A DNA stretch of 64,000 nucleotides from Proteromonas lacertae. Its lineage: Eukaryota. Under the pieces are notes generated by a model that made no database searches, was not told where the DNA came from, and was given only the letters and a program-made list of their open reading frames with translations. This document shows positions 7,488 through 64,000 of this stretch, piece by piece. The first letter of the stretch is position 1; every line of letters starts with the position of its first letter. The position numbers were made by a program, and so were the translations under genes. Where the stretch lies: positions 1 through 64,000 of the forward strand of contig NGBS01000906.1 in assembly GCA_002245135.1 (NCBI GenBank), given 5' to 3'.

Positions 7488-7598
7488 GATGTTTAAAAAG
7501 AAAATAATGAAATTACCAAAATTGACAAAAATTGACATAAAATGACATGGCTTGATATTCAAACAAGCTGAAACGACTATAAACGTATTTGAAAAATT

Positions 7599-10500: not shown

Positions 10501-11549
10501 CAAGTGGTAATGTTGTATTTACATTCCCAGATGAAACATCAAATGGTTTTATGTGTTATTTATTAGCTGATAAAGAAGGAAAACCAATTATAATTCAATC
10601 AAGTGAGTTATTTGAATATGTTAGTGAAAAAGATGGTAATTATTATTTTGGTCAATATTTTGATGATGATGTTAAAGTAAATGAAAACACAAAAGAAACA
10701 ATCCAAAATGATGATGGAAGTGTAACTCAAATATTAGGAAAAGGTTTATTTACAATTGAAAAAGAAGAAAATGATAATAGTAAAGATAAGATAAATATAG
10801 GAAAGTTGAATAATCCTGACTCTCCATCAATTGCTTATCCTCCATCTTTAATAAGTGATGGAATAAAGAAATTAATGGTTGCTGGAACAACAATGATGTT
10901 TATTCAAGGTGTTACAACTCAATCTACTCAAATATTGAAAGTGATAGTAAATGAAAAAGGTAAATTTGAATTATCTTTAAGTAAACCAATATCTTATGGA
11001 CGTAGAAGATTGTTAAGTAATACTCGATCATTACAACCATCATCTCCATTAACAATTAAGTTTTCAAAAGAAGGATCAGTTCATAAATCATTAGAATGTA
11101 GTGGTCAAGGAATATGTGATAGAAGTAGTGGATTATGTTCATGTTATGATGGATTTAGTGGAAGTGCTTGTCAAAGATTAGATTGTCCAAATAATTGTAA
11201 TGGAAATGGTCGATGTGTTGCTTTAAGTGAATTATTATCAAATGAAGATTTGAAAGATTATGATGGATATGGAAATAAAAGAACAATTAATGAAGGTAGT
11301 AAAAATGTTGTTGAATTTGATGATCAAATATTTGGTTGTTTATGTGATAAAAGACATCGTGGATATGATTGTAGTTTAATAGAATGTCCATCTGGTTTAG
11401 ATCCAGAAGAAGCAACAAATGGAACACCAGGAAGTGATGAATATCGAGATTGTAGTGGAAGAGGTATTTGTAATTACTCAACAGGTGTTTGTGAATGTTT
11501 TGATGGATTTAGTGGAGAAGGATGTCAAAATATGGTTCAAATGATGTAA
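7599..11549 (+). CDS. Secreted EGF/tenascin-repeat protein of the stramenopile mastigoneme (Sig1/Ocm1/Mas) type, with a large three-repeat insertion
   Basis: Signal peptide; N-terminal CPNNCNAHGRC...GNDCSLLKCPEG; C-terminal ECSGQGICDRSSGLCSCYDGFSGSACQRLDCPNNC...RDCSGRGICNYSTGVCECFDGFSGEGC. Intronless, 1316 aa. Confidence 0.8.
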   Translation: MIKDIFIISLLLGVVISVCPNNCNAHGRCIDGSCVCFDLTGVGDGKSYTGNDCSLLKCPEGNPLFASGSSYSVSSGSDFGYFVRELYENNTTSNRALIESTMVKVEKVDGDSVGLYKIEVTDDFFKPLPKIGGFIQCSYTEKSKSGEVSGKVEVIGLTDDKSTAYVIFNNAIDITRPVTCNRILLARKSMVYYGPNHNIDSSQVGRQLAADDQTITWANYGIVLKELGLLQPPTPTPTTAPTTTTTPSEGGPEGDTAERGRRNLEGEITYTNDKFKFVCYTSSNLLEEYSATATYTEGKNDLVFTLSAPASVRRTLTELTTSSYCYCLMDGNFKPTTVDKTELVEITNQNGGNYEIGKYLKTTDPQEKDENGNAVITLPGIPTISTNTATTSITSESPFISSGRVVYIDVLKDGKVSEKEVKITGVTTSRMIRQLDASFTLTFSESVSGIILPYIKMHSSNPTKDTKPSGSVVEGNLYRVYSLADVMISQLNKNVGGKLQCSYDKAENDKDVSIVVDVKGYEKSEKNHVYYSYIQFPVEITADNIATVKCSKIISKRKDFTLYNPLKLDTALTDNKLTWTGYAEILKDIKFDGVNFACYNPNDNEKNENKDLITVYDKVTVTKPDPDANGKDVSFTFSTSKPDAKDICYLSATSDGNAITDLMESDLSSYIRKVDGNYYYGKYEKPKPGEGKIEVVPDPETLTPVFILDNSNNVITTNTIKIDESQLQSDDLEYFEVGKTIYIEVVGKDNIPYFHKATIIQPKERILATGDKTLKFSPAIPTNTKPTGVISVSPVNEVITLADIDSENNLYKVTNFFDELISKLPQKFGGKLQCKYVETKDGKETEAVAGFADVKGYKTNSGGVIVESYIQFDHPVENQPETPPSPALPESVYYIEDVVCTDIISERNDMSLYNPTTVSGDKITWTGYESILTEIGLTTFTDSISFTCYNPNQTNKMMKNYKTSALSSSGNVVFTFPDETSNGFMCYLLADKEGKPIIIQSSELFEYVSEKDGNYYFGQYFDDDVKVNENTKETIQNDDGSVTQILGKGLFTIEKEENDNSKDKINIGKLNNPDSPSIAYPPSLISDGIKKLMVAGTTMMFIQGVTTQSTQILKVIVNEKGKFELSLSKPISYGRRRLLSNTRSLQPSSPLTIKFSKEGSVHKSLECSGQGICDRSSGLCSCYDGFSGSACQRLDCPNNCNGNGRCVALSELLSNEDLKDYDGYGNKRTINEGSKNVVEFDDQIFGCLCDKRHRGYDCSLIECPSGLDPEEATNGTPGSDEYRDCSGRGICNYSTGVCECFDGFSGEGCQNMVQMM

Positions 11550-22236: not shown

Positions 22237-25200
22237 ATGAGCCTAAGTCAGCGCCTAGAGGTGTTCCAAAGGTTAGATTTAATCTACTTTCGAAAAAAGA
22301 GCGTATTATTTACTAGAATTATTTTTGCATTAGCTGTATATAAGAAACTATTTGGTTCACCTATAACCAAAAGGTCTCACTCTTCCAATAGCAAGTTATT
22401 TTTACCAATTTATGATGAGTTTCTGGATGAAGCTTCTAAAGAAGCAGCATTTCATATTATCTCATCCTGTGTTCCAAGATACATGTACAACATAATACCA
22501 ATCCAATCGTTTCACACATATACCACCAGGTTACAAAACATGTGAAGCAATTATCGGGTTTTTCGATTTTACAGGTTATACACGTCTAGCAGAGTTACTA
22601 AGTCAAAGAGAAAGACGAACCACGTTTGGTAATAGGATGGATCGTTCTAGAAGTGCTTGTATTGGAGCAGAAGAGTTAATGAAAGTATTGAATGACTATT
22701 TTACTGAAATAATTCGAATAATTCATGATAATGGTGGAGATGTAGTTAAATTTGCAGGTGATGCAGTGTTAGTATGGTGGCCAATAGAAACTGATTCAAA
22801 TCGTACAAAATGGAGTTATGATATAGATAATCCACAGAGTTATAATTGTGGTAAGAAAGTAAGAAATAAAAATGATAAAAAAGACAATTCAAATAATAAA
22901 GAAAAAGAAAAAGAAAAGAAGAAAATGCAGAAGAAGATGATGACAGTGATTATGAAGATAATAATGAAGATGTATTAAAAGAAATTAAAACAAAACTATC
23001 AGAATCAGCAATAATCACATGTTATAGTATAATCCGTAGTTTACATCGACTAAATAACCAACATGATTTAGAATTGAAAATAAAATTAGGTCTAGCATTA
23101 GGTGAAACAACATTCCTTTTATTTCAAAGTAAAGAATATAAACGAAATGAATGTCTAATATCTGGAGATGTAATAAGTACTGCAGGTCTAATGGCTGAGA
23201 AATCGAATAGTATTTACATAGGAATAGCTGATGAATTGTTTTCTTATATTCCTGATGTGAATATACTAGGACCACTAGTAAAAATAGATGGTGGATATTT
23301 AATAAAGAATGATATAGATTTACCTATAGGTTTTATTCCTGATTATAATTATAGTAACAGCAATTATAGTAATTTCAATCAATTGAATGAATCAAACCAT
23401 TCATCAAGCTTTTCACCATCAGCAAGTAAATCAGTTTATAAAAGTGAAGACAAGATTGTTCCTCTACTACCAAAACTACAAACATATAAAACATCAGTAG
23501 CTTATTGTCAAACATCCATACCATTTCAAATCCAACCAATTCTATTATCTTTTATTCCACTCTCTATTAGAGATTCACTCCAAGCTGGTCCTGGTTCAAC
23601 TGAAGCTACAAGAGTCAATCGTCATGTAGATGCTTATACAGGTTGGATATCTGAAATTAGAAGATTATCTATTATGTTTATATTATTTCCAACACTCAAA
23701 TGTTCTCCAGATCAATATGAGATAGTAAATGATACTTATCAAATAGTAATGAAAGCAATAAAACCAAGAAAAGGAATATTAAGACAATTTATAGTGGATG
23801 ATAAAGGATGTGTAATGATATGCGTATTTGGATTGAATTCTGTTTTAGGTTATTCATCTTATGCTGTAAAATCAGCAATGGAAATATTAGAACAATTAGA
23901 AGATATAAATGTTCCAATTTCAATAGGAATAACGACTGGAATATGTTATTGTGGAGTAATAGGAAGTGCGAATCGATGTGAATATACAATATCAGGAGAT
24001 ATAGTTAATTTATCAGCAAGAATAATGGTTCAAGGTAAGAAAATGATGAATCAATACAATCGAGATAATATAATATTATGTGATGAAGAAACAAGAAATG
24101 ATTCAAAGAATTTAATATATTATGAATATAAATCAAAGATAAAAGTGAAAGGTAAAGAAGTATTGATTAATATCTATGAACCATTTGAATTAGTATTTAT
24201 TGGAGGTGAAGAAAATGAATATGTAACCGATGAAGATAAGAAATATATCCATCCAGAAATATGGCGTGCTGGAATTCATTCTAAATATCAACGTACTTTA
24301 CAGGATGTAGATGGAGAAAATATGTTGTATGGTTCTAAATTTGGAAAAATGAAAAGAACGAGGAATTCTATTCATAGTTTACCTGTTAGTCAATCTCATT
24401 CTCCACTACCTGGCACTTCAACTCCAATAGTGGATAAAAGGAATTTAACTGATCCAAAAGTGATGGATATTCAGAATAAAAAGAATTTTTCAGCAACTTC
24501 TCCATTACCATTTAGTAATTTAAGTAAATATGTAATGATGAGACCATCTTCGTCAGCTAAGATTGGCTCAGAAATTGATCTAATAGATCCTACTACTGCA
24601 TTGAATAATGGTGTTGAAATATCAACAGATCTACAATCATTATCTTCTCCTCCTCATCCTCCTGCTCCACCTTCATCTGTTAAACAAACTAAACCAATAT
24701 TGAAATCATCACCACCATTATCACCTCCTCCACAACCATCACAAGATAATAATAATAATAATAGAAACAACTCTGAAACAGTATCAGTAGATAATAATTC
24801 AGAAGTAACAAGTGCTAAACATAGTAGTGAAATAATCAAACATGACTCAAGCTCAAATGGTGAATATCGAATCAAATCAATGGCAGTTGCAGCTTATGCA
24901 TTAAAAGCAGTTTTTACATTAGGTTCATCTGTACAATTAGCAAAATACTTAGAAAGAATGACTTCTTTACCATTAATGATATTAAAAGTATGTTCAGTTG
25001 TAGCACTATTCCGTAACAGAATTCACTTTGTTTTATTAAGTGATATTTTACCAATGAAATCATTTAAACCATTACTCAAAGCAACATTAGATGAATTGGT
25101 TGAAACAGGAATATTAGTAACATTAGATCCAAAGGCAACATCTCCTCAACATAGACAACAACATCAACATCATCGACAGCTCTTTGAAGATCAATTAAAT

Positions 25201-25995
25201 AATACTAATAATACACTGCCAAAAGGTAATAAACGAAGATCTAAACAAGAAACTGATTCTGTAGTATTATCAGATTTCTTACTCGAAGATAGTAATATGC
25301 CAATATATCGATTCAAACATGAACATGCAATAGAAGTTTTACATGAACAACTATTATCATCACAAAGACAAGATTTACACAATGCTGTAGCAACTTGGTA
25401 TGAAAAGAGTGTAGGAAATAGACTTAGTGAGATGGAAAGTCAATTATATGCTGTTATTGCTTACCATTGGTCAATGTCACCTGAAGAAAGAATTGCCTTA
25501 GCAAAATCAGTATTATATATGCATTTAGCAGCTAAAACAGCTTTGAGAGAACAAGCCTGGCATTCTGCGATAGATTATTTACTAAAAACATTGGAATTAT
25601 TAGATGCAAATAAGAAATATGGATTGAATGGATTTACTATTGCATTTGATGCTCCATTAGCACATTGTTATTTAGCTCGAGCTTATAGTCAAATTAATGA
25701 TTATGATAATACTTTAAAGCATATAAAATTATCATTTGAATCATATCATGCTCCTATTCCTTCGATTAGACATGATGTATACTTTGAATATGAAGGAGTG
25801 ATGCATAATTATTCGTTAAATAAAGGATGTAGTTGTTTTAAAAAGAAAGTGAAGTATTATCCGACTAATACCACACCAGTTGAAGATATTATATCGTTGT
25901 ATGAATTGTATATTCAACTGAAGAATAATACGAAGAAGAAACAGTGTGTTTCGACTAATCCATCATCATCTTTATCATCAAGATCAATGGTGTAA
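22237..25995 (+). CDS. Soluble adenylyl cyclase (ADCY10/sAC)-like protein: two class III cyclase domains plus C-terminal helical/TPR-like region; two frameshifts near 22520 and 22915
   Basis: C1 motifs FFDFTGYTRL and GDVVKFAGDAVL; C2 motifs FIVDDKG, EYTISGDIVNLSARIM and IKVKGK; distal YRFKH...QRQDLHNAVATWYE...AYHW. Confidence 0.85.
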
Positions 25996-29925: not shown

Positions 29926-32900
29926 TTACACATCTACAGTTTCTAATCTATTATTTGACTTATCTGATCTACTAGAAGCTTCTGCAGATTTATTTATATT
30001 GGATGATTTTGACTTAGATTTATGATTATCAGATTTTAAAGTATCAGATGAATCAGAAAACGTAGAATTCCTCAAAACCAATATTTTCTCATGCAATGTA
30101 GCTCCATCACTTAATCCAACAGTTAATCTATTATTGTTATTATTCTTCAATTCATCTTTACTATTTCTACTGTTACTGTTCGCTTTATTATTATTATTTC
30201 TTTCATTATAATCATCAGCTGCTGGAATAAATTCTTGTTCTATTGGACTACAGATACTTCCAAATCGATTGTTGTGAATGTTTCTTGCTGTTGTATTACT
30301 GGATGAACTATTAAAATACAATTAAATACAAATAAATACAGTTGTATTAATGATAATCTTTGACTTTCATGAGTGGATGGTACTAAATATGAACTTTTCT
30401 TTGATCTTCGCTGTACAGACATTCGTTTGGGTATAAGTGATCGTTGTGATTCATTTCCTGAACAATTTGGTGGAGAAATACTTCTATATATATATATATA
30501 ATAATAATATAAAATATATACGGTCCTTGTTCATATTGTATCTGTTGTTGCATTTGTGTTTGAGTCTTTATCATTTTACCATAATTTGCTCTTAATGTTC
30601 TATTAGTAAAACTACTGATATTATAATTATTATCATTATTATTGTCGTTATTATTGTCGTGATTGTTATTCATATTCTTTGAGGATCTTTGAGAAGATTT
30701 TGATTTTGATTTTCTACCACTAGAGGATTGAGATTCTTTAGCATTCTTTTCATTCAAATAGAACATATACATTTTCTGTGAATTAATTAAACTGGAAATT
30801 AATATATTAATAATAATCAAGCCAATAGCTTGAATAATAGTTCTAATTGTTAGATTATCACTTAAATAGATGGATGATGGTAATATTATTAAAATTCCAA
30901 AGAAAATCAATACAATTGAATAGGTTATTTGCATTGATTCATTAAAATCTCTATCAGCATTTCTCACTCTAAATGAAACATATAAAATAAATAACAATGA
31001 AAAACCATCGATCAACAACTCAATAACTGAACATGCAACATTATAATGACATGTATAGATAATTGTCATTTTACTTATATCCGTTTCTTTTTCATAATAT
31101 TCTGAAGTGATTTTGGGTGGAAATGCAAAATTCCAAATTACTACATAAATAACATAAACAATCATTATGATTAATATCATATATAATAAATCCATTGTTC
31201 TTGCACTGACTCTCTTTATTCCAGTATTATTCAACACTTTATGAACTTTCCAAGTCTTTGTAAATAGTGTAACATACAGTAATTTCACTGAAATAATTAA
31301 GAATAATAATTGATTTCTACACATATTCACACTTTCAGCTTGTTCAACAAAGTATACAGCGGATAATGTAAGTAAAATTGATGATAGACATATCATATAT
31401 ATAAAGAATAAAAATGATTTTCTGATGATTTTAGAATGACGATAATAAGTAGCAAATGTAACAAATACTATATTCAATAATATCGATATTCCACCACATA
31501 TTAAAACAAATACATGAAGTGTTTGTGAATATTGATAAGTTGATTTTGGTGCTCCAAAATATAGATTATCACCATTGTTATAATAATAATAAATATTATC
31601 TGTTTTGTATCTTTCAAGTATTGTTAAAGTAAGGTAATGATTAATCTGAGCAAAATAACTATCTGCTTTTATAATATTCTTATCAGTTACTTCTACTTGT
31701 TCAATTGTAGTTTTCACTTGTGTTGAATATAATATATATCGAATAATATCTTTATCTATGTAATTATAATCATTATTATTGATATTAACATATTTCGGTA
31801 TTTGCTTTATTATTGTATCAATTGTATTAATTGTGGATGAAGTGTGATAGAGTAAATCATCAGGTTGTAATTGGTTATTAGACATCACTTTAATACTCTG
31901 GTTAAATTCATTCATCAATGAGTTAAAAATTGGATAATATGAAAACAACATGTAATGAGTATTTAAATGGTTTTGGAATTGTATAAATATATCGTAATTT
32001 GGATAGATAAATATCATTTTTATTGAAGAGTAATATAATCCAACTAGTTCATATGCATCAAGGAGATTCTTCATGCACTTTTCCTGTGAAATCATTACAA
32101 CAACTATTGATAATTATTATATATATATATATAATATATATACACGCCATTCTCCCACGTATTAAATAATATTCTCTCATTTTCACTGTTAATTCATCGA
32201 TTGCAGAAGGATTTGAACAATCATCAATAACAATATAATCCCTCATTCTGTAGGATGTATGATTCAATAATTCTTGTATAGTAACAGCTGTAAAAATAGA
32301 AATTAAAGAAAATAAATAAAAAAAATATATAAGTAAAAAATGATATATTTCATAATCTTTTGGTGCTAATATTGAATAACCATCTATTGCCAATTCTTCA
32401 AATTTCTTCATTAAAACATTAGCAATAAAACTATCGATCCAAGCAAATGGTATAATATTATATCTTAAGTTTTTATAACTGTAAATTCTACAGACATACA
32501 TCATAATTGTATTATCAAAATCATTTTGGACTTGTAACAAATCATCCATTGGTAATGGAGAAATATAACAGAAATAAGTGTTTTGATTAGATGACAAAAT
32601 ATCTCTTAATTCATCAATATACTTGTATTGTTTAACATATAAATTATAGTATATATCATTACTTTCTTGGTTTATTTTCGTTATTTCGTATTTCAATGTC
32701 ATATACAATCTTATATCAATATCATACTCACTTTCAGCTATAATAAACAACAATTTTATCTCTATTTTATTAAATGTATAAAGATATGTATTATCAACAT
32801 CACCATCATTATTTTCCATTGAGAATGAACAAAATAATTGTGGAGAATGAGTATAAGGATTATAATTCAACGGAACAATGGAATATTTCTCCACAAATTC

Positions 32901-35900
32901 AATTTCAAATGAGTAAGTCAAATGATATTCTTTTGTATAATTGTATTTCACCAACATATAATACTGTTGTACTAGCCTTGAAGGTAATAAACTAACATAA
33001 CCATAAGGACTTAGAATATTTAAATGTTTATTCAATAACTCACTCATTTCATTGTTATTATTAATACTTATAATATTTTGCAATAACAAAATACTCAAAG
33101 TTCCTATATAGATTGTAGAATCAATGATAAAATTATCACCAAATTCATTAACATATTTCATTAAGAAATTATTAGAAATATCTCTAAATTGGTATATAAT
33201 TTGATCAGAATTAGCTTGTAATATACTTCCAAAATAAGTGCCAAATAATCTGAATTTATTCAATAAATGACGTTTATCAAGTGATAAATGCAATAGAGAT
33301 AAGTCAGTTATAATTACTCTTTCATTTGGATCGAATATTGATAAAAATGATTCAGCAAATTCATCAGATATTTTAAATATATTTCCAAATAACAATAAAA
33401 TAGTTCCGTTATAATTCTGAATAAATGATTGGATTGATTGAATTGATGATACTTTTTCCCATTTCAAAACTTAAGGATGTGATATCATTATAATGATAAT
33501 TCAATAATATATCCCTTACAGATTGAACAAACTTAGCATGTTTGGCATTGTATATTATCACAATTTTCTTTGTTTTATCAAATAGATAATTGTTTATATA
33601 ATTTGTGAATGAATAAGGTAAATAATTAACAAAAAACACTTGTCTTTCACACACTTCACCAGCATGAGGGAATAAATAGAAGAAATATTTCATTCGTTAA
33701 ATAAAGTAATGGTAAAAAATACTTTTCTACAATTTCATAATCTGTTAAAACTAAATAAATTTGAATATTCGTTTTGCTAGTAAATATATTGATTAAATCT
33801 TTATAATAATAAGGTTTTGGTACAATAACTCTTCCATTTAATCCACCATTTGTGTTTATTTCAAAACATTCTCTTTGTATTGATATTATATATCCTTTTT
33901 CATAGTCTGATAAATCACTGAATTGATTCTGTATAATCACACCTATTGTTATTACATCTTTTGATGTTAAATAACAATAATTTGATCTTTTCATTTCTAC
34001 AGCATAGTTTAGATAAAGAAATTTATTTTTTTCTTCACTATAACCATTACATAATTTATAATCGAATAAAAATGGTTGACTTATTAATTTCTTATCTGTT
34101 ACAAAGTTTCTAACGTAATTTATTCTATCCAATACATTTGAAGGAGCAACTTTTATTATCCCAAATGGAGAAATTATTTCATTACTATAGAAATCATATG
34201 TTTTAATATCAAAACCAGAAATTGCTAAAGTATTCCTTAAAATATCAACGAATAGTATATTAATAAACTGATATTCAGCAAAATGTAGATTTTCTATATC
34301 TCCAGATAAATAATTAGTAATTAAACTATTAATAACATCATTATTCATTATATTATATTCATTATTAAAGTTGTTAATATAAACAGAATAATCTATTAAA
34401 TTGTAAGTTCCAATAATATAATTATTAATAAATGTTGGACAATTATCTAAATATTGCATTTGTCCTCTTTCTAATAAGTAATAATAAATATTTAAAATAT
34501 AGTCGTTACTCAATTTGCGATAGGAACACATCTCATCAGCAAATGATCCAACGGAATCATAATCTAAAATACATACAATTTCATGTACTATTTCTGTTTC
34601 AATATATCTAGCTATAAATTCATCAACATCATCAAATAGAGAATCTCTTGTCATTGGAATAAACATCAAATTATCCACTGGAAATTTGTTTATTATTTTA
34701 TCAACTAAATAATTGTTTACTTCTGAATATATAACGACTATATTTTTCTTTTCATATCCTTTTACTAAGTAATTTACCAACGGAATTAAGCTTTGAACTT
34801 CATTCACACCAATAATTGTATTCTTTGATATTTCACAATAACCAAACAATCTAAATGCAAAATAAATTATATTCGTTTCATTTATTGCTGGAATAACAAT
34901 TGGATGGTTCATATTTTGATAAACCACCAAAAATTGCAATTATTTGATTGTTATTTTTCTTATTAAACAACTTAATATCATCTACTGCTTCTTCTATATC
35001 TTCTTTAGCATGACATGGGTATGTTTTAATAGATAAACTGTTATAAGAATCTTCATTATCATATAGTGATATATAATGAATAGAGTTTATTAAAGTTAGA
35101 AGAATTGGTCGAGTTAATATATAATCTCTTCTCTTTTGTACAGCTTTTGTATTGTATAAAACGGCTATATATTTTGGAATAGATGGAACTATTTTGAATT
35201 CTGAGTTACAAATCAAGCCGAAATATTCTGGTTGGTTCTTAGAATAAGATTCTGAATATATTTCCATATCATTACTATATTTCTTTAATAACTGATATTC
35301 ACGATTATTATTGATTATCACTAAATACAGTGGATTTAACGTGTAATGATTCTTATTCAATCTCATTGAAATATTTGCGAATTTATATTCCATTTTATTT
35401 AAAGTCTTTCTCTCCAATATTTCATTGTAATTTGTTGAATTATGAGCTTCAACAATAGAATTGTATAACATCAACTGGAAGTATCCTAAGTAACTGTAAT
35501 AATTGGGATTTTCACCATATAAAAGTGGATAAATCTCTTCAAACATATCATATTCATTCTCCATAAAGTTAGGAAAATAAGTTGAAATAGAGCATGCATT
35601 ATACAAATAATATTTTGGATTATTCATATAGGAAAATATACTAAAAGTACAGAAGGAAATTGTCCTATCTAAACCTCGAGTTGATAAGAAGTTAAATATA
35701 TCAACATCTAAATCATTTATTGTATTAATAACCAACATTTTATTTCCTGTAATTTCATCAAAATATGATTTTATTGAGTTTATTGTTGGGTTGTAGATTA
35801 TATCATAATTAATTCCTAAGATATTACACCAATATTTAAATGCTGAAGCATCTAATCCTATTTCACTGTTAGTTATTAATAAGAAATATTGATAATTCAA

Positions 35901-38900
35901 CGCATAATAATAATTCAATAAATTAATCCAATATGCATTAATAGTTGAAACAGTGGAAATGACATATTTATTACATATTCCAGATTCATAATTATAAGTA
36001 AATAATGGCAATTGATATTTAATTAATATTTGATTTATACTTAATACACAACTCCTTGTTAAACATCCAAACAAAGCAATTACTTTATTATTACTACATA
36101 ATGTATTAACTTCATTTAAAAACTCATCAATAAATACTTCGTAATAGATAATATGATAGTTTATAATATGATGTTTCAACTCATATAATGCAGTATAATA
36201 TCCTTTCAATATTTGAGTAGTAAAGTTATAATTTCTTTCTTTTATAACAACGATTATTTTGTGTGTATAGTTATCTGTATTATTGTATTCTTTTGATACA
36301 TTACAAGTTTGGTTTGATAATAATACATGATTAGAATAATAAAAAGGTTCAGGAATAATATAATCAGATGAATTATAGATTAAATTGATTGTATAAATTT
36401 CTTCTTCAATTATTAGTCCATTATCATTATTATTATTATTATCGCCATCTCCATCAATGACTATATTATCACCATCTCCACTATCTATTTCAATATTCAA
36501 TTCTCTATTTCTTCTTCTTCTTCTTCTTTCATTAGTATTATCATCATCAACAATAGTTGAATTATCAATTATCCATACATTCAATTCAAATTGGCCTATT
36601 CTCATTATTCTACTGAAATAATTTGATGATTTTAGTTGGATATTACCTTCAGGAGCATAATAAAATTGATCTATTTCTAATACACTTTGAGTGCGCATTT
36701 TGTGAAAATAATCTAATGCGATTGAAGCAAATTCATAACTATTGGATAATGTTAATAATTTCAAATGTGGAAATTGTACACAATTAGTGTATTGATCATT
36801 ATATTTCAAGCCATAGGTTTGAGTGATGGGTGTAATTATGCAATTATTGTCAATGTAATTAAGAATTGGAGCAACTTCAGTTTGTTGTAAATATAAATCA
36901 AATATTGTGAATGTATTGAATTTATCTTCCTTAACTTTACTGTATAGTCTATTTCTGTCATAAATTAGGTTTAAATTATAGATATCTTCATATACACCCT
37001 CATTATACTCTGTGCTTATTGCTAATATTACTACATTTATATCTTCCATATTTTCTACTAAGAAATTTGTTAATAATTTCAATTTGGACAAATTTGATAA
37101 TATGAATGACTGAACATTAGGAATGAAATGTTCAGTCATTATTGAATCATAAATCCTTGATATAAAAGACCTAATTGGTTTTGCTGATTTATCATATTCA
37201 ATTTCATACACTAAAACAGTTCTTTTGATGTTTTTCAACGCACAATATTCACCTATTACTTGTAATTTCTGATGTAATAATGACCCAAATATGTAAAAGT
37301 TACTATAATAACATTCTTCTTGATCAACATCGTAGAAGTAATAGAATTCAATATCTTTATCTTTAATTGTCTCTGCTATCATTTTTCTACCACTTTTACT
37401 AGGGATAACCTCCAAATATGGCAATTACCTTTTAATTCGATTAATTCTTCCACTGCTTCTTTTAAAGTACTTAAATCATCGGTTGTATCTTTATAAATCA
37501 TGAATAATGCTCTTCATCATCATCCAGTTGTCGATTTAGAAATTCAGCATTAGTAGCAAATATGATTGGCAAATCATTGTATACTGTTTGATATTTTCCA
37601 CTGAAAGGATGCAAAAATCCAATTTTCACTATTTTAATCTCTTTTTTGGTGAATTTACTTGAATCTGTGTCATTTGGTATACAAACATATCTACCATTAT
37701 TTTTAATAGAAGAAAATGCCATCTGTTTAAATGTATATGCATTACTATATAAATTGACATAATCGCCTGTAAATGAATTATATCTCAATATATAAGCAGA
37801 TATAGCTAAATACATATTATCAGTAACAATAGTATCACCTAAAGGGGTCCAATACACATTACCCTCACCAAAAATCAAACTTTTAATTTCTGTAAATTTA
37901 GTCGTTTCATAATTTTCATACCCCTCATATAGTATTTTGAATAAAGAATAACATATTACTCCTGTATCTGATGGAAATGATTTCATTGAAGTAAACGCAT
38001 CTAAATATGACAAAAATAGTATATTTTCAGGTAATTGATTATTTGGATCATAATTTGACATAAAAAACATATTATCTGGAATATTTTCACTTACTAACTG
38101 ATAGGATTTAGTTATAAATAAAGGAGAATAATATACAAACAGGTGATAAGACAAATACTCCGAGTCTTTATCATAATAAGAATAAAAAGCTTGAATGATG
38201 TTTGACAAAAATTCAAAATCTTCTGTTAAAACAACAATTATTCCACCTGAACTCATTGATATTCTTATATCTTGGAATATTTCATACATATTGTAATTAT
38301 TAACATCAAATTGGTAAGAATGAAAATTATAACTGAATATTGTCAATAATTTAGACAAAGAGTCTCTATAATCCATTGAAAATTCAGCATGAATCTAATA
38401 ACATATAAATATTATATCTCTGTTTTTGAGTAAGTGGTGAATTAATGAAAATTTCGGTATATGGTACAGACCCACCACGTATCACATGACTTGAACAAGT
38501 TTCTCCACCTGATTTATATGGATGAATTAGTGGAATATCATATTTATCCAGTAATTTATTATTTTCAAAAAATTCTACACATTTTGAAGTATAACAACCA
38601 AAAATAGTGGAAATATTGTAAGTGGAAAAAATTTCTTCTAAAGATGGTAGGAAAATTGAATAATCTTCCACTGATTCATTGATATACAGTATATGAGGAA
38701 CCTATATATATATATATATATATGTTAAATAATATATATATATACATAAACACTAAATGATTTTTCAGCCATCTCATAAATTGCCGTTTGGATTGAAATA
38801 ATATGCAAATAATCATTAACATTATCTTTATCATATAATATTAAACAATGAAATGTTTTGGTTAACAACAATTTATATTTTGCTCCACATTTATATCTTT

Positions 38901-41900
38901 CTATATCATCTAAATTATCATTTACATTATTGTATGTGATTGTTAATCTATGTGGAGGTTGAATAAATCCATTCTTATTGAAGGTAAATAAATAATAAGC
39001 ATTTATAAACAAATTAGACACTTTAAGTAATTCTAAAATATTGTTATAATAGTGTATTATTGATATTCTATTTATTGGAATTGACTTTAAATTTCTAAAC
39101 AAATAATCACCTTTTGGTGTTTCTATCTTATAAGTATTTAAATCAAATTCACTTTTATAATCTCTCAACAATAACAATCCAATATAACTATTAACAACAT
39201 GATTCTGTAATAAATAAGTACCATTGTAATAAAATACATTTAAATTTGTTAAATTCAATCTTAAACTATATTCTCTCATTGCATAATGTAATTGTCTATT
39301 TGCTTCATTATCTAATGAATTGTAATATGAATTAATGATATAAGAATCATTATAGAGTTGAGTATAATTATTATTAGCGATTAATACACTTTCATCTATT
39401 CTCAATAAGATTAAAGTCATATTATTATCTTTTGATTTTATTAACTTTGTCATTTCATTCAAATCAGTAGAATATAATGTTGAAATGATAAAGGTATTAC
39501 TACATTCATTTATTATTTCAATTATTTCACTAGAACTTGAATCATATTCTCGATGATGTTCTATCAATATTTTTTTAGGTTTATATCTTATATATAACAT
39601 ATTATTCTTTATTAATTCATAGATATTGTGAGTATACTTCCTATTATAACCTACTATACAAAGCTGGAATATTATCTTGTATAAATTGAGCATCATTATT
39701 GTTAATTAGTAAGTGATTAATTCCTGTTAATGTTTGCTCAATACTGTCACCTAATTGGACGAATTTTGAATTACATATTGATTCTGAATACCACCATGTA
39801 TTCATAAATGTAATGTTTGACTTGGTGATATATTCACGAATTATATCAATTACTTCATCTCTAATAAGGAATAAAATAAAATAAAATAAAGAAGAAGAGT
39901 GAAATATATATATATATATACTCAAATGCTCCAATAACATATGATTTATCCAAATACAAGTCAAATACTTCTTTATAACACTCCACTATCAATAACATCA
40001 CAGGTATAACTCTTAATTATTGGCATTTCAGCAAAATCAACATTCAAATATAAGTGTTGAATCACTGAATAAAATGGATCTAAGAATTGAGATGTGTATT
40101 TGGTTTTATCAGGAATAATGATTTTCACATGAACTAATGGAGTTTCTTCAACTATAATAAATAAATATAAATAAAAAGAATATAATAATTTATACTTTTC
40201 CCATTTTTTATATCACATAATGGCATACTCATTGTATCATAATTGTAATTGAAATTATAACTCTTCTGAGCTATCGTACTCATACTGACAATATTCAAAC
40301 TATCATCATCATCATCATCATTGAATGTATAATATGTAGGATAACCAATCACATTCAAATTACTGTCAAAATATAAATAATTTTTATCATTTGTTGAATA
40401 TTTTTCAAAGTATTTTTTATAAACTGATGAAATATACGATCCAGATTGATTTACAGAATAAATAATATTCTGTGAGAATGTATATGCCATTCTAAAATCA
40501 ATATTATTTTCATTGTTAATTTTTTTATTCTTTCTTTCCTCTATGAATTCATCTGGAAGTGGAATGTTGGGATAAATTGAAATGAAGAAATACTTTTTTA
40601 TTTTTATATGAAATGATTCAATTTTATAAGGTGTAGAATGACTAAATGAAAAAAATGAAACCATTTTACTATTACCTTCATTATATTCTTCAAAAAATTG
40701 TTTTGTACAATTAAAACCTTCTGTCCCATGTATTACTACAAATGGATCCGTTTCAGAATTTAAAATATTTAAAATTTCATTTAAAATTGTTACAATTCTC
40801 ATTGGTATGTAACTGTAAGAACTGAAAATGTATAAACTTTGATATTTCTCCATTTGTTATTAAATCTTTCAAATATTCACCATACCTTCCTTGCGAATAT
40901 ACTAAATAAGCTTTATATTTCTGACTACCCAACTGAGGTATAGTTTGGAAATGAAGAGTAAAAGAAAAAATATTGTGAATAAATATTGGAGTTTAAATAT
41001 ACGATATGATCATCACAAGTATTTGATTCAGTTTCTTCTACTAGGAAAATGATAATATTATGTTTATTAACGAAGGGAGTGAGAGTTGTAATGAAATTAC
41101 TATCGATTGCTGCTAAGATAGAAGTAAAATCATATCTTTGTTTCAATTCTTCAACCTAATAATGAATTAGATTTATATATATATATACCTGTTTTAGTAA
41201 TAATTCTGGTGTCTGAGATATACAGATTGGTATAATAATCATTTTAATCATATCAGAATCGTAGTTTAACCTCATTTCTTCCAATACATAATCAATTACT
41301 GAATATTTCTGTATTCTATTGGTATTCTTATAGCACATATAATTATTATAAATAACTAGTAAATAATGAAATGTATATATCCCATTTAACTGACATAATT
41401 CAGGATTATTTAAATCTGTTATAACAGGAGTATATTCTCTGATATCATTATCATCTTTGTAGTTATATTCAGTCAATAACTCAATTTTATTATTTCCATT
41501 CGTATTTCCATCACTTCCAACCATCAGGTAATAATTAGAATAGAAAAAATGGTTTTGATGGTAATAAAGTGTTATTTCTGGTGTAATTATATCAGTTTCA
41601 TATTTTTTATATATAATGGAATATTGAGGAAAATTATAGACTGTTACACAATCTAACCAATGTTTCATCATATAGTAACTAATATACATTGTACCAATAA
41701 TTTCATCAGAATTACCGTAGGCTTGTCTGTAGATTTGAGCAAATTCTGTATTTGTGTAGTTATACAGGTAATTCACTAAAATGTGGTAATTATTGGAGAT
41801 TTTGATATTAGGGTTATCAGTTGTATAAATTGACTCTACTGCATCGATTAATGAGTATATTTCCACTTTAGATATTATATCTGTCTTAGAATTCAACGAT

Positions 41901-42597
41901 ATGAAGAAATTTTCAGTATCTTCTTCCAGCAGAGTCAATATTATATTATATGAATCATAAGGAGTTGATGTTAGTATATTATCTATCTCTGTTATTGTAT
42001 TTGCTGCACTACTGAAATTAATAACTGAATATTCTTTTATTCTCCGTATGATTGAATAATAATTATTTTTTTCATTCAGCATATCTGATAATATATTTAG
42101 AGTAGGATTTCCTTCATAACCGACTAAAATTGTATATCCATTTAGTTCAGAAAGTACTATGGATAATAAAAACAATGATATATACACTTATATGCTTTAT
42201 GCAAAAACAATGCACCAAAATAAGCATTCTCTATACACTTATTAAACGTATAACTTTGTGCTACTAATAACATCGCTTTTTCTTCTTGATTCCTATCATA
42301 CACAACACTAACACATTTTTGATTTACTATTGAAAATATAACAGAGACTTTATTGGAATATAGCTTATCAACAGCTTCTTCACACGTCACATCACTTGTT
42401 ACATTCTCAATGTGTATAATAAAATTAGGCTTATAAATTGAAGAGTTGAATGCTAAAAGAATGGAGTTACTAACTAAATGACTGAAGTGACTAAATTTGG
42501 GTGAGAGATCTTGTAGGATACCAACATTTATATCATCTATATTTGCAAAAGTTGACAATAAACAACTGACAAACACTATAAAATTAAATAAATACAT
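29926..42597 (-). CDS. Giant class C (family 3) GPCR: signal peptide + ~9 tandem UrtA/AmiC-like periplasmic-binding (Venus flytrap) domains + 7TM + S/N-rich tail
   Basis: 7TM motifs RHSKIIRKS, LFTKTWKVHKV and RVRNADRDFNES. Repeated ligand-binding-domain motifs KIGFLHPFSG, TIFGCYTSKC, IALFGCLTRSC, GGETCSSHV, AGEVCERQV and EINTNGGLNGR. Segments are joined by short introns and single-base frameshifts. Confidence 0.8.
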
Positions 42598-52652: not shown

Positions 52653-55600
52653 ATGTCAGTATATACTTATTATTTTACATCTATTTCATAGAGGTTCATT
52701 ATCCTTGCTGTTATTTTAGCATTTGCATCAATCGCTGTTGCTCAGGATCAAAAGTATTTTTAATTTTTATAATCAATAGAATGAACTTTGGTGGAGTACA
52801 TTTGGAAAGATCAGCTGATTTAAAGTCGAATATTGCTTTAGGAAAGATTACTTATGATAATTGGGATAAATGTGCAGAAGAGAAAGCTCATTTCTTAATA
52901 ATCTGTAAATTTGTTGATCATATTCCAGAAGAACGAGATTTCCATATTGAGAATTACGCTTGGGTTGAGTGTGAAGGAAATAAGATAAATATAACTCAAA
53001 AAGGTCGAAAAGATAATCTTTTCTCTTGTGAATTAATCCACAATGAAGGTCGAAAACAATATGATATGAAATACAAATCTCTTCCTTTGTTATCAAAAGA
53101 GTATGTAATAGAACGAGATGAAGATTTATCCAAATACCATGTTCGAAACAATTTAGCTTTAAACATGCCAGACTGTGATGCTGAGAAATCTAACTATGAA
53201 TTATACTGTGGTTTCTTTACTGATGTAGTAAAATCTGAAGAAGTGAAAAAATCCGAAAATAAACGAGAAATAACTGGTGATAAAACTCCTTTATCATTCT
53301 CTTCTAGTGGTATAGAAGATCATTATATAACATGTTATATATATCGATCATCTGATGGTAAAATAATCGATACTTACAGTTCAGGAACGCCTAGTTTAAA
53401 TATTGAGAATTGGTCAATGAAGATAGGAAAAGACTTAAGTAAATATGAATTGCGAGGAGATAATCGATTAGAATGGAAAACATGTAATATGAACAATGAA
53501 GTAATGGACTTTAGAATAACTTGTGGATTCTATAAAGATGTTCCAAGTCCATCTGATTTGCGAAATAGTTGGGAAATGGATATAGAATTAGAATGTGGTG
53601 GTTGGCCTTGGCAAGTGATGTGGACAAAAGATGCTTCTTACAAATACTGGGGATGTATGACCTATGATGGAAAAGATAAAGCTGTAGCTGATTTAAAATA
53701 TGTTGAAGCACCTAGTTTGATAATGCCAAATGCTGATTCAATTGAAGAGAAAGATAATAAATGGTATGTGAAAGATAAATTACAATTGAAATGGACTAAA
53801 TGTGAAGCAGAATCTAAAGATTATGGTTATGTATGTGAATTCTTCAAAAATATTCCAACATATGAAGAATTAATAGAAAAGAAAGATAAGATCGGTAATA
53901 TAAACTGTGTTGAAAACTCAATCGAAGATACATCTGATAATTTAAGTGAAGGATATTTAGTATGTGGAATATTGAGAAGATCAACCAATGATGTAATATC
54001 AATGGAATATATAAGTAAGAAAAGTATTGATATTCAAGAAATATCCATGTATAAAGATGATAATAAGATCTATGCAAATGGTGATATAAGATTGAATTGG
54101 GCTAAATGTGAAAATGAAAAGAATGATTATGAATTGATTGTAAACTTTTTTGATCATTCTCCCTCTGTAGATGAAGACTGGTCAGGTAAAAGTATTGAAA
54201 TAAGCTGTGATAAAACCAAAGTTGATCATGAATATACCTCTGATTTAAAGAAGATTCACTTTGTAGTAAAGTTGGTGAAGAAAGACAGTAAGATAGTATA
54301 TGATGTAGAATCAATAAAACTACCATCATTTGATATAAGTAAATTAAATGTATCTTTCACCAATAAATACCAAAATCATCGTATTATATCTGGTTTTATT
54401 CCAATTGATTTCCCTAATTGTGAACGAAATCATAATCAGTACAGTATAATCTGTGATTTCTCCACAACCACACCAACTTATGAATCATTAATGAATGGAT
54501 TTAAGAATAAGATTGTATGTGATGCTTGGGAATTAGAAGGATTAACATCCGTTGGAACAGATGATAGTGTATTTGGTTGTATGATGATTGAAAATGAGAG
54601 TAAAAAGCTGGTTGAATTAAAATCAATCGATTTCGATCCTCATCAAAGGTATGATTTATTAATTTTTATAATTCAATAGAATGGATTTCAGTAGTTTTGC
54701 TCTTTCAAGAACATCAGATTTAAAAACAATTAAAGCTGCTGGAAAGATTACTTATGTAAATTGGCCAAACTGTACTGCAGAAAAATCCCATTTCTTAGTA
54801 TTATGCAAATTCTTAGATCATGTTCCTAAAGAAACAGATTTTCATATCGAAGGTTATCAGAAAGTAGATTGTGATGGAAATGTATTTAATGTGTCAACTA
54901 CTGTAAAAGCAAATTCTGTATTTGCTTGTGAACTGATGCAAAAAGAGAATAGAAAACAATATGATATGAAATACAAATCTGTTCCAACATTATTAAAAGA
55001 ATATAAAGTAAAGAGAGAAGAAGACTTTTCCAAATTCAAAGCTGAAGGTATGTTAGGTTACACTTGGCCAGATTGTGATTTAGAAGTTCATAATTATGAA
55101 TTATTCTGTGGAATATTCGACAATATTCCCGAAACAGATGAAATCCGAAAAGAAGAATATAAACAAGCCATTACTTGCAGTGGAAATAAGATAAATTTTG
55201 AATCTAAAGGTGTTGAAGATCATTATTTGACTTGTTTAATATATCGTAAAACAGATGAGATGGTAATTGATAAAATCAGTTCAGGAACGCCTAGTTTAAA
55301 TATTGAGAATTGGTCAATGAAGATAGGAAAAGACTTAAGTAAATATGAATTGCGAGGAGATAATCGATTAGAATGGAAAACATGTAATATGAACAATGAA
55401 GTAATGGACTTTAGAATAACTTGTGGATTCTATAAAGATGTTCCAAGTCCATCTGATTTGCGAAATAGTTGGGAAATGGATATAGAATTAGAATGTGGTG
55501 GTTGGCCTTGGCAAGTGATGTGGACAAAAGATGCTTCTTACAAATACTGGGGATGTATGACCTATGATGGAAAAGATAAAGCTGTAGCTGATTTAAAATA

Positions 55601-57335
55601 TGTTGAAGCACCTAGTTTGATAATGCCAAATGCTGATTCAATTGAAGAGAAAGATAATAAATGGTATGTGAAAGATAAATTACAATTGAAATGGACTAAA
55701 TGTGAATCCGAACATGATGAATATGGTTATGTATGTGAATTCTTCAAGAATATTCCAACATATGAAGAATTAATAGAAAAGAAAGATAAGATCGGTAATA
55801 TAAACTGTGTTGAAAACTCAATCGAAGATACATCTGATAATTTAAGTGAAGGATATTTAGTATGTGGAATATTGAGAAGATCAACCAATGATGTAATATC
55901 AATGGAATATATAAGTAAGAAAAGTATTGATATTCAAGAAATATCCATGTATAAAGATGATAATAAGATCTATGCAAATGGTGATATAAGATTGAATTGG
56001 GCTAAATGTGAAAATGAAAAGAATGATTATGAATTGATTGTAAACTTTTTTGATCATTCTCCCTCTGTAGATGAAGATTGGTCAGGTAAAAGTATTGAAA
56101 TAAGCTGTGATAAAACCAAAGTTGATCATGAATATACCTCTGATTTAAAGAAGATTCACTTTGTAGTAAAGTTGATAAAGAAAGATAACAAGATAGTATA
56201 TGATGTAGAATCAATAAAACTACCATCATTTGATATTGGTAGTTTAGATTTCTCATTTACCAATCGGTATTATAATCATAGAATAATCTCTGGTTTTATC
56301 CCAATCGATTTCCCTAATTGTGAACGAAATCATAATCAGTACAGTATAATCTGTGATTTCTCCACAACCATACCAACTTATGAATCATTAATGAATGGAT
56401 TTAAGAATAAGATTGTATGTGATGCTTGGGAATTAGAAGGATTAACATCCGTTGGAACAGATGATAGTGTATTTGGTTGTATGATGATTGAAAATGAGAG
56501 TAAAAAGATGATTGGATTAGAATATGTCGAACTAGCAGGATTAATAATGGATGAGATAAAAATTAAGCATGCTGATAATAACAAAATCACAGTGAATGGT
56601 TTATTAAAATACAAATTAGGAAAAGATGCCAAAGCTGAAGATTTCCATTATGAATGTAAATTATCAAATGAACTTCCAACTCCATCATTATTCGATTATG
56701 AAAAGAGTGAGATAATAAATGTAGAAGGAAATGAAGTAAACTTCTTTGAAGAATCTAATGAATTCTTTGGTTGTATTTTATATCGAGTAAATGACAAAGG
56801 AATAATCGATTTACAATATAAAGAATTACCTGAATTCAATGTAGAACATTTACACTTGGAAGTGAATAAGAAAGATAAAGTGTGGGTTCCAGAAGGTGAT
56901 ATAACATATAAATGGTCTAGTTGTGGTATTAATAAAGATAAATTCGAATTAGCTTGTGAATACAGTGATAATGAACCAAGTTCTGTGAATTTAGACAAAG
57001 CTAGTAAATTTGATATTGTTTGTAGTGGAACAAATCTTACTTCCTTTACTACTGATCTAAATAATGAAGTTTACTTGGGTTGTTCTTTAGTGTCAAAAGA
57101 TGATAAAGAAGTTTATGATTTCCATTTCATCAAAGGAAAAGAAAGTCATGATAGTGATTCTTCAAAAGTATGGATGATTGTTGTTACTTCTGCTTCTTGT
57201 GTCATTGCATTCCTTATTATTGTTACATTGGTTTGTTTCTTTGTCAGAAGTATGAATCTTAGAAGAAGAAAGAATTTGGATGAAAAGTCTGACATTGCTG
57301 CTGAGAAATCATTACTAGCTAATGAGCAAGCTTAA
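52653..57335 (+). CDS. Type I membrane surface protein (~1,500 aa) built of ~100-aa Cys-containing repeats
   Basis: Signal peptide MSRFIILAVILAFASIAVA after splicing. Introns 52754-52779 and 54649-54679 join the ORFs in frame. Repeat pattern W..C....Y...C.F...P...C. TM helix WMIVVTSASCVIAFLIIVTLVCFFV; short tail ending EKSLL. Confidence 0.85.
53377..56507 (+). repeat. Near-identical direct repeat pair 53377-54607 / 55277-56507 (offset 1,900 bp) inside the surface-protein gene
   Basis: Line-by-line identity apart from a few substitution patches. Confidence 0.95.
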
Positions 57336-59788: not shown

Positions 59789-60574
59789 TTAAAATGGTTC
59801 TGTAACACCTGTATCCATCCACTCTGTTATAATAACTTGAGGTGGGAATGCTTGATATGAATATGCATCAAGACCTTTTCGTTCTATATAAAGATTACAT
59901 TTATTATTATTATTTCTTAATATAGGCCAAAAACATCCATAATCATTAATTGCAGGTTGTGAAGTTTCATTTATTACACCTTGTATAGGGAAGTATATTC
60001 CATTACTACCATCTACAAAGTATGTTTCTAATAATTTGTTATAATATTGTTGCAATAAATCTTCTTTACCTGGTTCAGCTTTAATAACATGATTGTCATC
60101 TAGATATAATATAAATCCATAACCATCATCATGATTTTTTAAAACAAGGCCATTGTATATCTTGATTCTCATAAAATGTTCAAACATTTGAATTTTTATA
60201 GGTACTTTTACAGTAGATTCATATTGATTGATGGAACCATCTTGAAATATATAGAAATTAACTGACCAATATGTATATTCAGTATGCAATAATTTAGGTG
60301 ATACAGAATTATTAACTATTGTAGTACTACCTCCAGAGCTATTATTTACAACATTATATATTTCTTGACATTTACCATATATAGTATTTGTAGTAGTTTT
60401 GATATCATTAACAGGTGTAATAATATTATTTATTTGAGTATCAGTATGATTATTAATAGGTTTAACAATAGTATCAGGATCAGTAGGTTGTATATTTATT
60501 TTGTCAGCTATATCTTTAGCAAGCTTATCTGTATCAATATTTATATCTGAAGTATTTCGTTCCCCAATAAACAT
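59789..60574 (-). CDS. Putative viral protein, possible fibre/spike (~260 aa)
   Basis: ATG at 60574 (MFIGERN...), directly downstream of the ATPase. N/T/I/D-rich N-terminal stalk-like part, SSGGS linker, aromatic beta-rich C-terminal domain. Confidence 0.5.
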   Translation of the reverse strand: MFIGERNTSDINIDTDKLAKDIADKINIQPTDPDTIVKPINNHTDTQINNIITPVNDIKTTTNTIYGKCQEIYNVVNNSSGGSTTIVNNSVSPKLLHTEYTYWSVNFYIFQDGSINQYESTVKVPIKIQMFEHFMRIKIYNGLVLKNHDDGYGFILYLDDNHVIKAEPGKEDLLQQYYNKLLETYFVDGSNGIYFPIQGVINETSQPAINDYGCFWPILRNNNNKCNLYIERKGLDAYSYQAFPPQVIITEWMDTGVTEPF

Positions 60575-60617
60575 TTTTTGAATTAATAAACAATAAAATA
60601 ACAAAATTAATAAAACA

Positions 60618-61381
60618 TCAAGAAACTTCAGAATGATCTTCAATCAAAATATTAAAGTTAGCTCTAAACACTTTTTTAACATTATCAATATATAAGAAGT
60701 TATATTGTGGCTTAGTAACAGCTAAATATAACTCTTTAAATGTTTCATATTCAGGTATCCATATATTCAATGAGTTGTATAAGTCAAACAAATTTCTATT
60801 ACTCAATCCATAAAATGTTAAACAATAATCTACTTGTGATCTTGCTGAAGGTACTATATCAGTAATATATTGACTACTAATTATAATTTTTGATTTTAAA
60901 TGTCTATTTTCTTTCATTAATACTGGTATGATATTAGCTGTTTTCAACTCTAAACTAAGATCATCAAATATTATAATATGTTCTGCATACTCAAAATTAT
61001 CTTTGTTTGTATCATCAATTGATTTCATTAACTTCTCTACTAAATTATCTCCTGAATAAGGTTCAAATAATGAATCGTTTTCATCATAACTAATTTCATT
61101 ATAATCTAATAACTCTTTAATTGAATCATATATCCTATCTTGTTTAATTGTGCCTACGAAAAAAATGTACATGTTGTTTTTTCTTATATTTTGGATCTAT
61201 AATATGTCTTAATATATTGTATATCAAAGTAGTTTTCCCACTGTTCTTACGAGCTACAATAAATATATTGCAGAAAGGCTCATTAAAGTAATCATATCCC
61301 AGAATTTTCTTAGGATCAAAAGACTCACCCACCATCAACAGGTTCAATTTGTATATTATTTATTTTTTCAAATTTAAACAT
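60618..61381 (-). CDS. A32/FtsK-HerA-type viral DNA packaging ATPase, two +1 frameshifts
   Basis: Reconstructed MFKFEKINNIQIEPVDGGESF...NIFIVARKNSGKTT (Walker A)...IIIFDDL (Walker B)...ENRHLKSKIIISSQY...ARSQ. Shifts at GGG (~61329) and the A7 run 61159-61165. Confidence 0.9.
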
Positions 61382-61451
61382 AGTGTGTGTATATATATAT
61401 TATGTAGTGAGAAATCAAAAATAAAAATAGAAGTCAATAATAAAGTGTTAT

Positions 61452-62872: not shown

Positions 62873-62925
62873 AATTTATGTTATTTTAAAAGATTAAAAA
62901 ATACTTAAAAATAGCAAGAAATTTA

Positions 62926-63892: not shown

Positions 63893-64000
63893 TATGTTTT
63901 ATAATTGTTGAGAAATATTAAATATAATTTTATTTGAATTATTCTTTAATTATATATTGTTATATATATATGCAACCGCAACCTCAAGTTAACAATTCAA

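Follow-up and report, generated by a model that had tools for sequence, protein, structure and literature searches.

We analysed a 64-kb window of Proteromonas lacertae DNA (by window we mean the whole stretch of 64,000 nucleotides (nt)) and describe here a gene on its minus strand that likely encodes a class C G-protein-coupled receptor (GPCR). An earlier note made without database searches (the sequence-only reading) had placed this gene at 29926..42597, and both ends hold, with the ATG at 42597 and the stop codon at 29926-29928. After removal of nine introns and bridging of eleven one-base shifts, the gene is read as a single frame of 4,094 codons with no internal stop, in the order signal peptide, nine units, class C seven-transmembrane domain (7TM) and cytoplasmic tail. 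Profile comparisons support the assignment of eight of the units to type I periplasmic-binding (flytrap) modules and make that of the ninth probable. The interpretation that we prefer, with a chance that we judge to be about even, is that of one intact gene for a class C GPCR of ~4,100 residues, whose eight, probably nine, diverged bacterial-type flytraps would serve as a sensor of multiple small molecules.

The window is gene-dense, with a G+C (GC) content of 20-30%, short AT-rich spliceosomal introns and the standard genetic code. As assembled, the receptor gene falls into 21 pieces, separated by 9 introns and 11 non-intron breaks. Eight of the introns are of the GT-AG type (29-61 nt, GC 5-21%). 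The ninth, an AT-AC intron at 32346-32290, has a donor one mismatch off the U12 consensus and a branch-point-like octamer 12 nt before its 3' end; it was not named in the sequence-only reading. If left in, it would place a false membrane helix in unit 9, and no other hydrophobic stretch lies between signal peptide and 7TM. We accepted this intron because its read-through gives that lone false helix and because a neighbouring gene contains an AT-AC intron with a perfect U12 donor (54 nt, 21190-21137, minus strand). The features of the gene are given below, in residues (aa) where the protein is meant; z values refer to end-to-end alignment with a bacteria-only profile, and shuffles to those scoring as high as the unit against a hidden Markov model (HMM) or profile of UrtA, of all periplasmic-binding proteins (PBPs) or of the other units.

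29926..42597, minus strand: receptor gene, from ATG to stop
42544..42597, minus strand: predicted signal peptide, aa 1-18, the only hydrophobic stretch ahead of the 7TM, cleavage site placed by eye
41378..42540, minus strand: unit 1, one GT-AG intron; z 6.6; UrtA HMM P 3.6e-5, 0/300 shuffles
40141..41377, minus strand: unit 2, two introns and two +1 breaks; z 5.2; all-PBP HMM P 4.6e-5, 0/300 shuffles
38860..40140, minus strand: unit 3, one intron and two +1 breaks; z 5.6; UrtA HMM P 6.8e-6, 0/300 shuffles
37642..38859, minus strand: unit 4, one intron and one +1 break; z 8.3; Peripla_BP_5 E 2e-4, below cut-off; hhalign 89.5% to the UrtA profile
36273..37641, minus strand: unit 5, one -1 and two +1 breaks; z 11.6; all-PBP HMM P 1.6e-10; hhalign 94.9%
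35184..36272, minus strand: unit 6, the only unit within one unbroken open reading frame (ORF); z 15.4; Peripla_BP_6 E 1.6e-5
33962..35183, minus strand: unit 7, one +1 break; z 4.2; UrtA HMM P 6e-5, 0/300 shuffles
32772..33961, minus strand: unit 8, two +1 breaks; z 7.4; leave-one-out unit profile 16.7 bits, 0/300 shuffles
31538..32771, minus strand: unit 9, membrane-proximal, probable flytrap, one AT-AC and one GT-AG intron; z 1.9, or 5.0 with units 1-8 in the profile; C-terminal half kept in the relative P0001
32290..32346, minus strand: AT-AC (U12-like) intron, 57 nt, in frame, within unit 9, GC 9%
30773..31528, minus strand: class C seven-helix domain; 7tm_3 E 4e-28, 99.2 bits; joined to unit 9 without a cysteine-rich domain
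29926..30772, minus strand: cytoplasmic tail of ~258 aa, rich in Ser, Asn and Lys, two GT-AG introns, stop codon
42185-42157, 41188-41156, 40195-40152, 39921-39861, minus strand: GT-AG introns 1-4
38745-38702, 32143-32104, 30521-30484, 30339-30308, minus strand: GT-AG introns 5-8
Near 40929, 40805, 39984, 39667, 38393, 37503, 37429, 37404, 34907, 33670 and 33459, minus strand: the 11 non-intron breaks

The nine units measure 363-456 aa and share a pairwise identity of 12-24%, and a plain pairwise search finds just one significant pair among 36 (units 4 and 6). The repeat is therefore real but visible only with profiles. We assembled a bacterial reference set of 90 type I binding proteins (35 UrtA-like, 55 other), and 22 of these formed the bacteria-only profile for end-to-end alignment. 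Units 1-8 score between z 4.2 and z 15.4 against this profile. The controls, 26 fragments of other proteins encoded in the window and 8 fragments of this gene cut out of register, reach at most 1.4. Unit 9 scores 5.0 once units 1-8 join the profile, where the 26 controls reach at most 1.7. A further alignment of this kind gave similar values, with reversed controls at most 2.0. The sequence-only reading of about nine flytrap units of ~400 aa is thus borne out for eight of them and weakly for the ninth.

Profile searches of other kinds agree for most units. Against 300 shuffles, all are beaten by units 1 and 3-7 with the UrtA HMM and by units 1-6 with the combined all-PBP HMM; unit 8 is marginal with both (1-4 of 300 shuffles as high), and unit 9 is detected by neither. 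Leave-one-out profiles, each built from the eight remaining units, place units 1 and 3-8 above every shuffle; unit 2 is beaten by 3 and unit 9 fails (266 of 300 as high). These matches cover both lobes in several units. A first profile of 26 bacterial proteins was weak and clear only for units 4-6, and Pfam's Peripla_BP_5 or Peripla_BP_6 matched weakly in four ORFs, always under cut-off.

The structural comparison centres on unit 6. An Atlas feature search with this unit returned solely bacterial clusters of the Peripla_BP_6/ANF type (0.94); the same search with the N-terminal half of unit 9 gave no usable match. Per-domain AlphaFold modelling, proposed in the sequence-only reading, yielded for unit 6 a two-lobed model with both lobes and the hinge kept when an alignment of 74 bacterial rows was supplied (predicted local distance difference test (pLDDT) 79.9, predicted template-modelling score 0.84). 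Foldseek placed UrtA structures at ranks 1-5 for this alignment-guided model (UrtA1 E 2e-17; TM-score 0.77 to UrtA), a ranking that is not independent, as 28 of the 74 rows are UrtA-like. VIA-align ties several members of the UrtA/AmiC/LivJ type at Z 31-33, among them a urea-binding protein, an amino-acid binder of Pseudomonas and a protein from Rhodospirillum at 32.6-33.2; mGlu4 scores 27.0 and GABA-B 24-26. Searched by plain sequence, units 5-6 matched no solved structure. Near its end (~36545-36400, minus strand), unit 5 contains a 47-aa low-complexity insert rich in Arg, Asp and Asn with a run of basic residues; speculatively, this run could be a processing site that splits the ectodomain.

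The kinship of the units with the UrtA/AmiC/LivJ group is supported by sequence comparison; membership in UrtA itself is not. Among 201 genomes, four of which gave a match, the two best bacterial matches of unit 6 are UrtA-type. Identity to proteins of the UrtA/AmiC/LivJ type is 10-18%. Seven of units 1-8 score higher with the UrtA profile than with the other-PBP profile, unit 6 being the exception. The best piece reaches 13.3 bits with TIGR03407 (UrtA), where the cut-off is 492.75. A quick, unrooted tree of 39 rows (the 9 units, 9 of the 35 UrtA-like and 19 of the 55 other bacterial proteins, and 2 fungal proteins) clusters the units together (support 89) and sets units plus UrtA apart from the two fungal flytraps and the remaining binding proteins (97). 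We claim no bacterial donor, because the tree is unrooted and has long branches, a skewed composition and no clade test. The sequence-only reading had likened its best reconstructed unit to UrtA/AmiC and had suggested a possible derivation from a bacterial solute-binding protein. The likeness stands in the Peripla_BP_5/6 matches, the missing ANF_receptor matches and the UrtA-type best hits, by which the units lie nearer to bacterial UrtA/AmiC/LivJ-type proteins than to the ANF_receptor profile, but does not extend to the binding pocket. In one proteobacterial genome (L039:103-2453) a UrtA-type gene adjoins a response-regulator/PAS gene, a pairing that hints that the UrtA family may also serve signalling in bacteria.

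The recurring motifs described earlier are only partly general. The FG(C/G) loop is literal in four of the nine units (4-7) and not in the others. The Cys after the E-x motif is aligned in seven of nine, shifted by two columns in unit 7 and missing in unit 9. This Cys and another in the linker are common to units 1-8, both being absent from unit 9, and a disulfide between the two is plausible.

The class C 7TM of the sequence-only reading is confirmed by 99.2 bits for 7tm_3 against a cut-off of 33.5, with positions 2-246 of the 251 in the profile matched. By hydropathy alone, seven hydrophobic segments lie at aa 3603-3851 and one more at aa 2-20. The nearest solved structures, among 53 sequences altogether, are mGlu8 (E 1.5e-8), mGlu7, mGlu6 and GABA-B2 (1.7e-6). 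A basic residue ending helix 3, an acidic residue before helix 6 and a Cys pair joining helix 3 and loop 2 are listed as class C marks (PMC3727952). In the present protein the Lys of helix 3, the Glu ahead of helix 6 and the two loop Cys align with mGlu8. Unit 9 has 4 Cys and continues straight into helix 1. Neither NCD3G nor ANF_receptor matched any piece at E up to 1 (Pfam), and for that reason we do not assign the gene to the mGlu/CaSR/T1R subgroup. The cytoplasmic tail has no convincing Pfam match.

A relative, P0001, is a 424-aa fragment with 40% identity across the C-terminal half of unit 9 and most of the 7TM (one of 1,367 candidates of near length; P0003 is a near-copy). By this alignment, P0001 shows that the junction of unit 9 and 7TM exists in another organism, and the fragment does not give the module number there. 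The 7TM search among longer proteins (449-2,000 aa, a range that stops short of lengths of ~4,000 aa) confirmed none of 2,259 candidates. A two-sequence profile search of proteins of 773-2,205 aa returned one of 6,432, P0004 from Allomyces javanicus (1,771 aa), which we rejected as a tandem array: its gene model fuses two class C receptors, each complete and with a single flytrap, and long class C entries therefore need inspection before they are counted as tandem arrays. Scans of metagenome contigs confirmed 0 of 598 and 0 of 215 candidate stretches.

For origin, divergence and signalling we infer the following course. An ancestral UrtA/AmiC/LivJ-type module would have been fused to a GABA-B-like 7TM and then amplified in tandem, long ago, because the units are now only 12-24% identical. 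The modules would have diverged at the pocket, each binding a different solute or none. Class C receptors dimerise, and flytrap closure rearranges the dimer; by analogy, this receptor would dimerise and module closure would rearrange it. Unit 9, tied directly to helix 1 without a cysteine-rich domain, would relay this motion to 7TM and G protein, and the distal modules would act via module-to-module contacts. The conserved Cys pair of units 1-8 may, as a disulfide, fix each module to its linker. Possible, though doubtful in our judgement, is a stronger version: that this is the largest described class C GPCR, is expressed, and arose from a UrtA/AmiC-type protein from bacteria amplified ninefold, with copies retuned to different metabolites and one 7TM integrating them via allosterically coupled flytraps, as a second, independent origin of tandem-flytrap GPCRs.

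Several results weigh against the multi-module sensor. No unit attains the Pfam or NCBIfam cut-off for any binding-protein family, and support is weakest for unit 9, the very module on which coupling to the 7TM depends. The unit 6 model was built on an alignment of bacterial binding proteins and shows compatibility rather than independent proof; without an alignment, AlphaFold gives units 5-6 a pLDDT of 31.6. The UrtA pocket residues (W120, S122, Y141, Q144, E146, Y190, F192, N246 and S274; PMC10392092) are kept in units 1-9 at 0, 3, 0, 2, 2, 1, 0, 1 and 0 of 9 sites, a count from a low-identity alignment in which single columns may be off, with 8 of the 9 sites kept in 34-35 of the 35 UrtA-like rows. 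In the helix-7 PK motif, beyond the range aligned to mGlu8, Gln replaces the usual Pro, the Lys and next Tyr being present. P0001, as a fragment, is silent on module number in the relative. Finally, the density of breaks is ~10x that of the cellular neighbours (11 in 4,094 codons vs 3 credible in 11,886 parsed), a rough count, since the parser can disguise a shift as an intron; the three credible shifts lie near 20215, 22917 and 49059, and the other six flagged were reassigned to introns.

The pockets admit more than one interpretation. Pocket positions differ across all nine units, and a lost UrtA pocket fits new ligands and equally fits dead pockets; urea is an unlikely ligand on this alignment. 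The gene could be intact and its distal modules mostly structural: a binding fold, now dead, would form a long, disulfide-stapled and glycosylated stalk or adhesion arm, and control of the 7TM would fall to the membrane-proximal part alone, or to a partner subunit. The unconserved pockets, the extreme divergence of the units while their Cys pattern is kept, the 31 N-glycosylation sequons of the ectodomain and the lack of a known route from a module eight domains away to helix 1 all suit such an arm. We nonetheless consider it rather unlikely: unit 6 retains its hinge along with the two lobes, the profile matches of several units span the whole two-lobed fold, and a plain spacer would be expected to homogenise or shrink more often. 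A separate question is whether the gene is intact at all, and here it is likely, in our estimate, that it is and that the eleven shifts are consensus errors of the assembly. Assembly error is favoured because all but one of the eleven shifts are +1, the exception being -1 (sign test p 0.012), and because the frame has no stops; natural decay is usually deletion-biased. Random substitutions make a stop in this frame in 6.5% of cases, and neutral decay with 11 indels would leave 2-7 stops (assuming 3-10 substitutions per indel), where none is observed (P(0) 0.12-0.001). All nine introns retain their ends, and the signal peptide and 7TM motifs are intact. The sequence-only reading of one gene from signal peptide to class C 7TM thus stands as a single frame; its intactness is a matter of likelihood, the eleven frameshifts having gone unmentioned as such.

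These same features (zero nonsense codons, the strong +1 bias, the kept introns and motifs) speak against a recently inactivated pseudogene, in which the architecture was once real and the frameshifts are true lesions in the genome. That history would explain the tenfold excess of shifts over neighbours bearing unbroken ORFs of 800-1,300 codons; on the evidence as a whole we regard it as improbable. The probably silent virus-like region at the end of the window has a similar shift density, which is expected if only well-covered genes were polished, and decay would account for it equally. Real shifts might also be decoded by programmed +1 frameshifting, which occurs in euplotid ciliates. Ten of eleven being +1, and two lying directly at the old-frame stop codon, fits such decoding. 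It is barely conceivable here, as there is no common shift motif, the neighbours are nearly shift-free, and near 37429, 34907 and 33670 the domain alignment requires the shift well ahead of the old-frame stop. The stops of the assembled region and its 21 pieces could instead suggest several separate genes, some for secreted binding proteins and, downstream of these, one for a class C receptor of the ordinary kind with one flytrap, an outcome that the sequence-only reading had named as contrary to its own claim. All 11 breaks are internal to units (offsets 47-180; units 2, 3, 4, 5, 7 and 8), and the junctions between units and between unit 9 and the 7TM are spanned by unbroken ORFs, except that units 2 and 3 are joined via a canonical intron. 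Because every break lies within a unit and all domain junctions are intact, and with no intergenic gap and no second signal peptide, we hold separate genes to be highly improbable. Two further explanations of the breaks were tried and set aside. As non-canonical introns, each break window offers 8-35 formal candidates, none with the genome's donor consensus and low GC. As over-calls in GG/CC runs, a post hoc idea, the eight windows tested (10-80 nt wide as allowed) show no preference.

Elsewhere in the window, a 1,318-codon intronless ORF (7593-11549, plus strand) with Cys-rich EGF/tenascin-like ends is likely a surface protein. An adenylate-cyclase-like gene, judged from its sequence, occupies 22500-25995 (plus strand) and has a single -1 shift, near 22917 in a run rich in A. 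A large membrane-anchored protein is encoded at 52700-57335 (plus strand); it is repetitive and has a long internal duplication whose copies are nearly identical. The intronless ORFs at 59789-63911 (minus strand) resemble an endogenous Polinton-like or virophage-type element: one half of an A32-like packaging ATPase (Pox_A32 E 0.012), a capsid-sized ORF (61650-62872) and two others without a Pfam match. The frame seems to shift near 62670 and 63763. A probable in-frame GA-AG intron lies near 3215 (minus strand). Blastocystis is described as having short introns and, besides, introns of the AT-AC and GA-AG types (PMC5608401), and the short GT-AG, AT-AC and probable GA-AG introns of the window resemble these, a hint at that lineage but no proof. 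The Blastocystis polyadenylation motif is not enriched, with 6 sites in 64 kb vs ~1 per 3 kb in human subtypes, and so does not place the organism.

Class C receptors studied so far carry one flytrap per chain. The present receptor shares with GABA-B, Dictyostelium Grl and diatom class C GPCRs a signal peptide, a 7TM with the conserved Lys, Glu and Cys, and a periplasmic-binding-type ectodomain set directly on helix 1 without NCD3G; it differs in having eight or nine flytraps in place of one and no ANF_receptor match in Pfam. A missing cysteine-rich domain is familiar from GABA-B and protist receptors (PMC12716839, PMC3727952). The ectodomain, at ~3,560 aa, exceeds the maxima of 1,600-1,667 aa among reported N-terminal lengths of 57-1,667 aa (Krishnan 2012, PMC3251606), 200-1,600 aa (Seppala 2016, PMC5168858) and 40-730 aa (Port 2013, PMC3727952). 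That class C 7TMs of protists and fungi can carry periplasmic-binding domains is well established (PMC3971589, PMC3251606, PMC5168858, PMC3727952). The same domain pair, Peripla_BP + 7tm_3, appears as a non-animal architecture in the supplementary figure list of de Mendoza 2014 (PMC3971589), a list that gives no copy number and so neither describes nor excludes arrays. With UrtA/AmiC/LivJ (Peripla_BP_5, Peripla_BP_6) the units share fold and in-register profile matches; here the urea pocket is lost, and the ninefold chain, the 7TM fusion and the extra conserved Cys are added. Trypanosome receptor adenylate cyclases also set tandem flytraps, with unknown ligands (PMC6027212), on a protist receptor, theirs having two modules, a single helix and a cyclase output.

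In the literature on architecture or lineage that we searched, mostly outside subscription journals, we found no description of class C receptors with tandem flytraps. Database entries for invertebrate 7tm_3 proteins include some with repeated ANF domains. The tandem design is thus not unique to this gene; module type, number and lineage are new as far as our search extends. In the established picture of class C activation, one flytrap per subunit closes on one ligand and pulls on the 7TM, and a chain of this length questions whether and how distal modules signal. Each module is a soluble domain of ~370 aa that can be expressed and screened alone, which opens the question to direct test. Should the modules bind different solutes, the receptor would be a natural multi-input sensor, a source of new biosensor scaffolds and of insight into sensing by a probably gut-dwelling protist; should they be dead, a binding fold has taken on a second role as a stalk. 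In both cases the receptor extends the size known for class C ectodomains about twofold.

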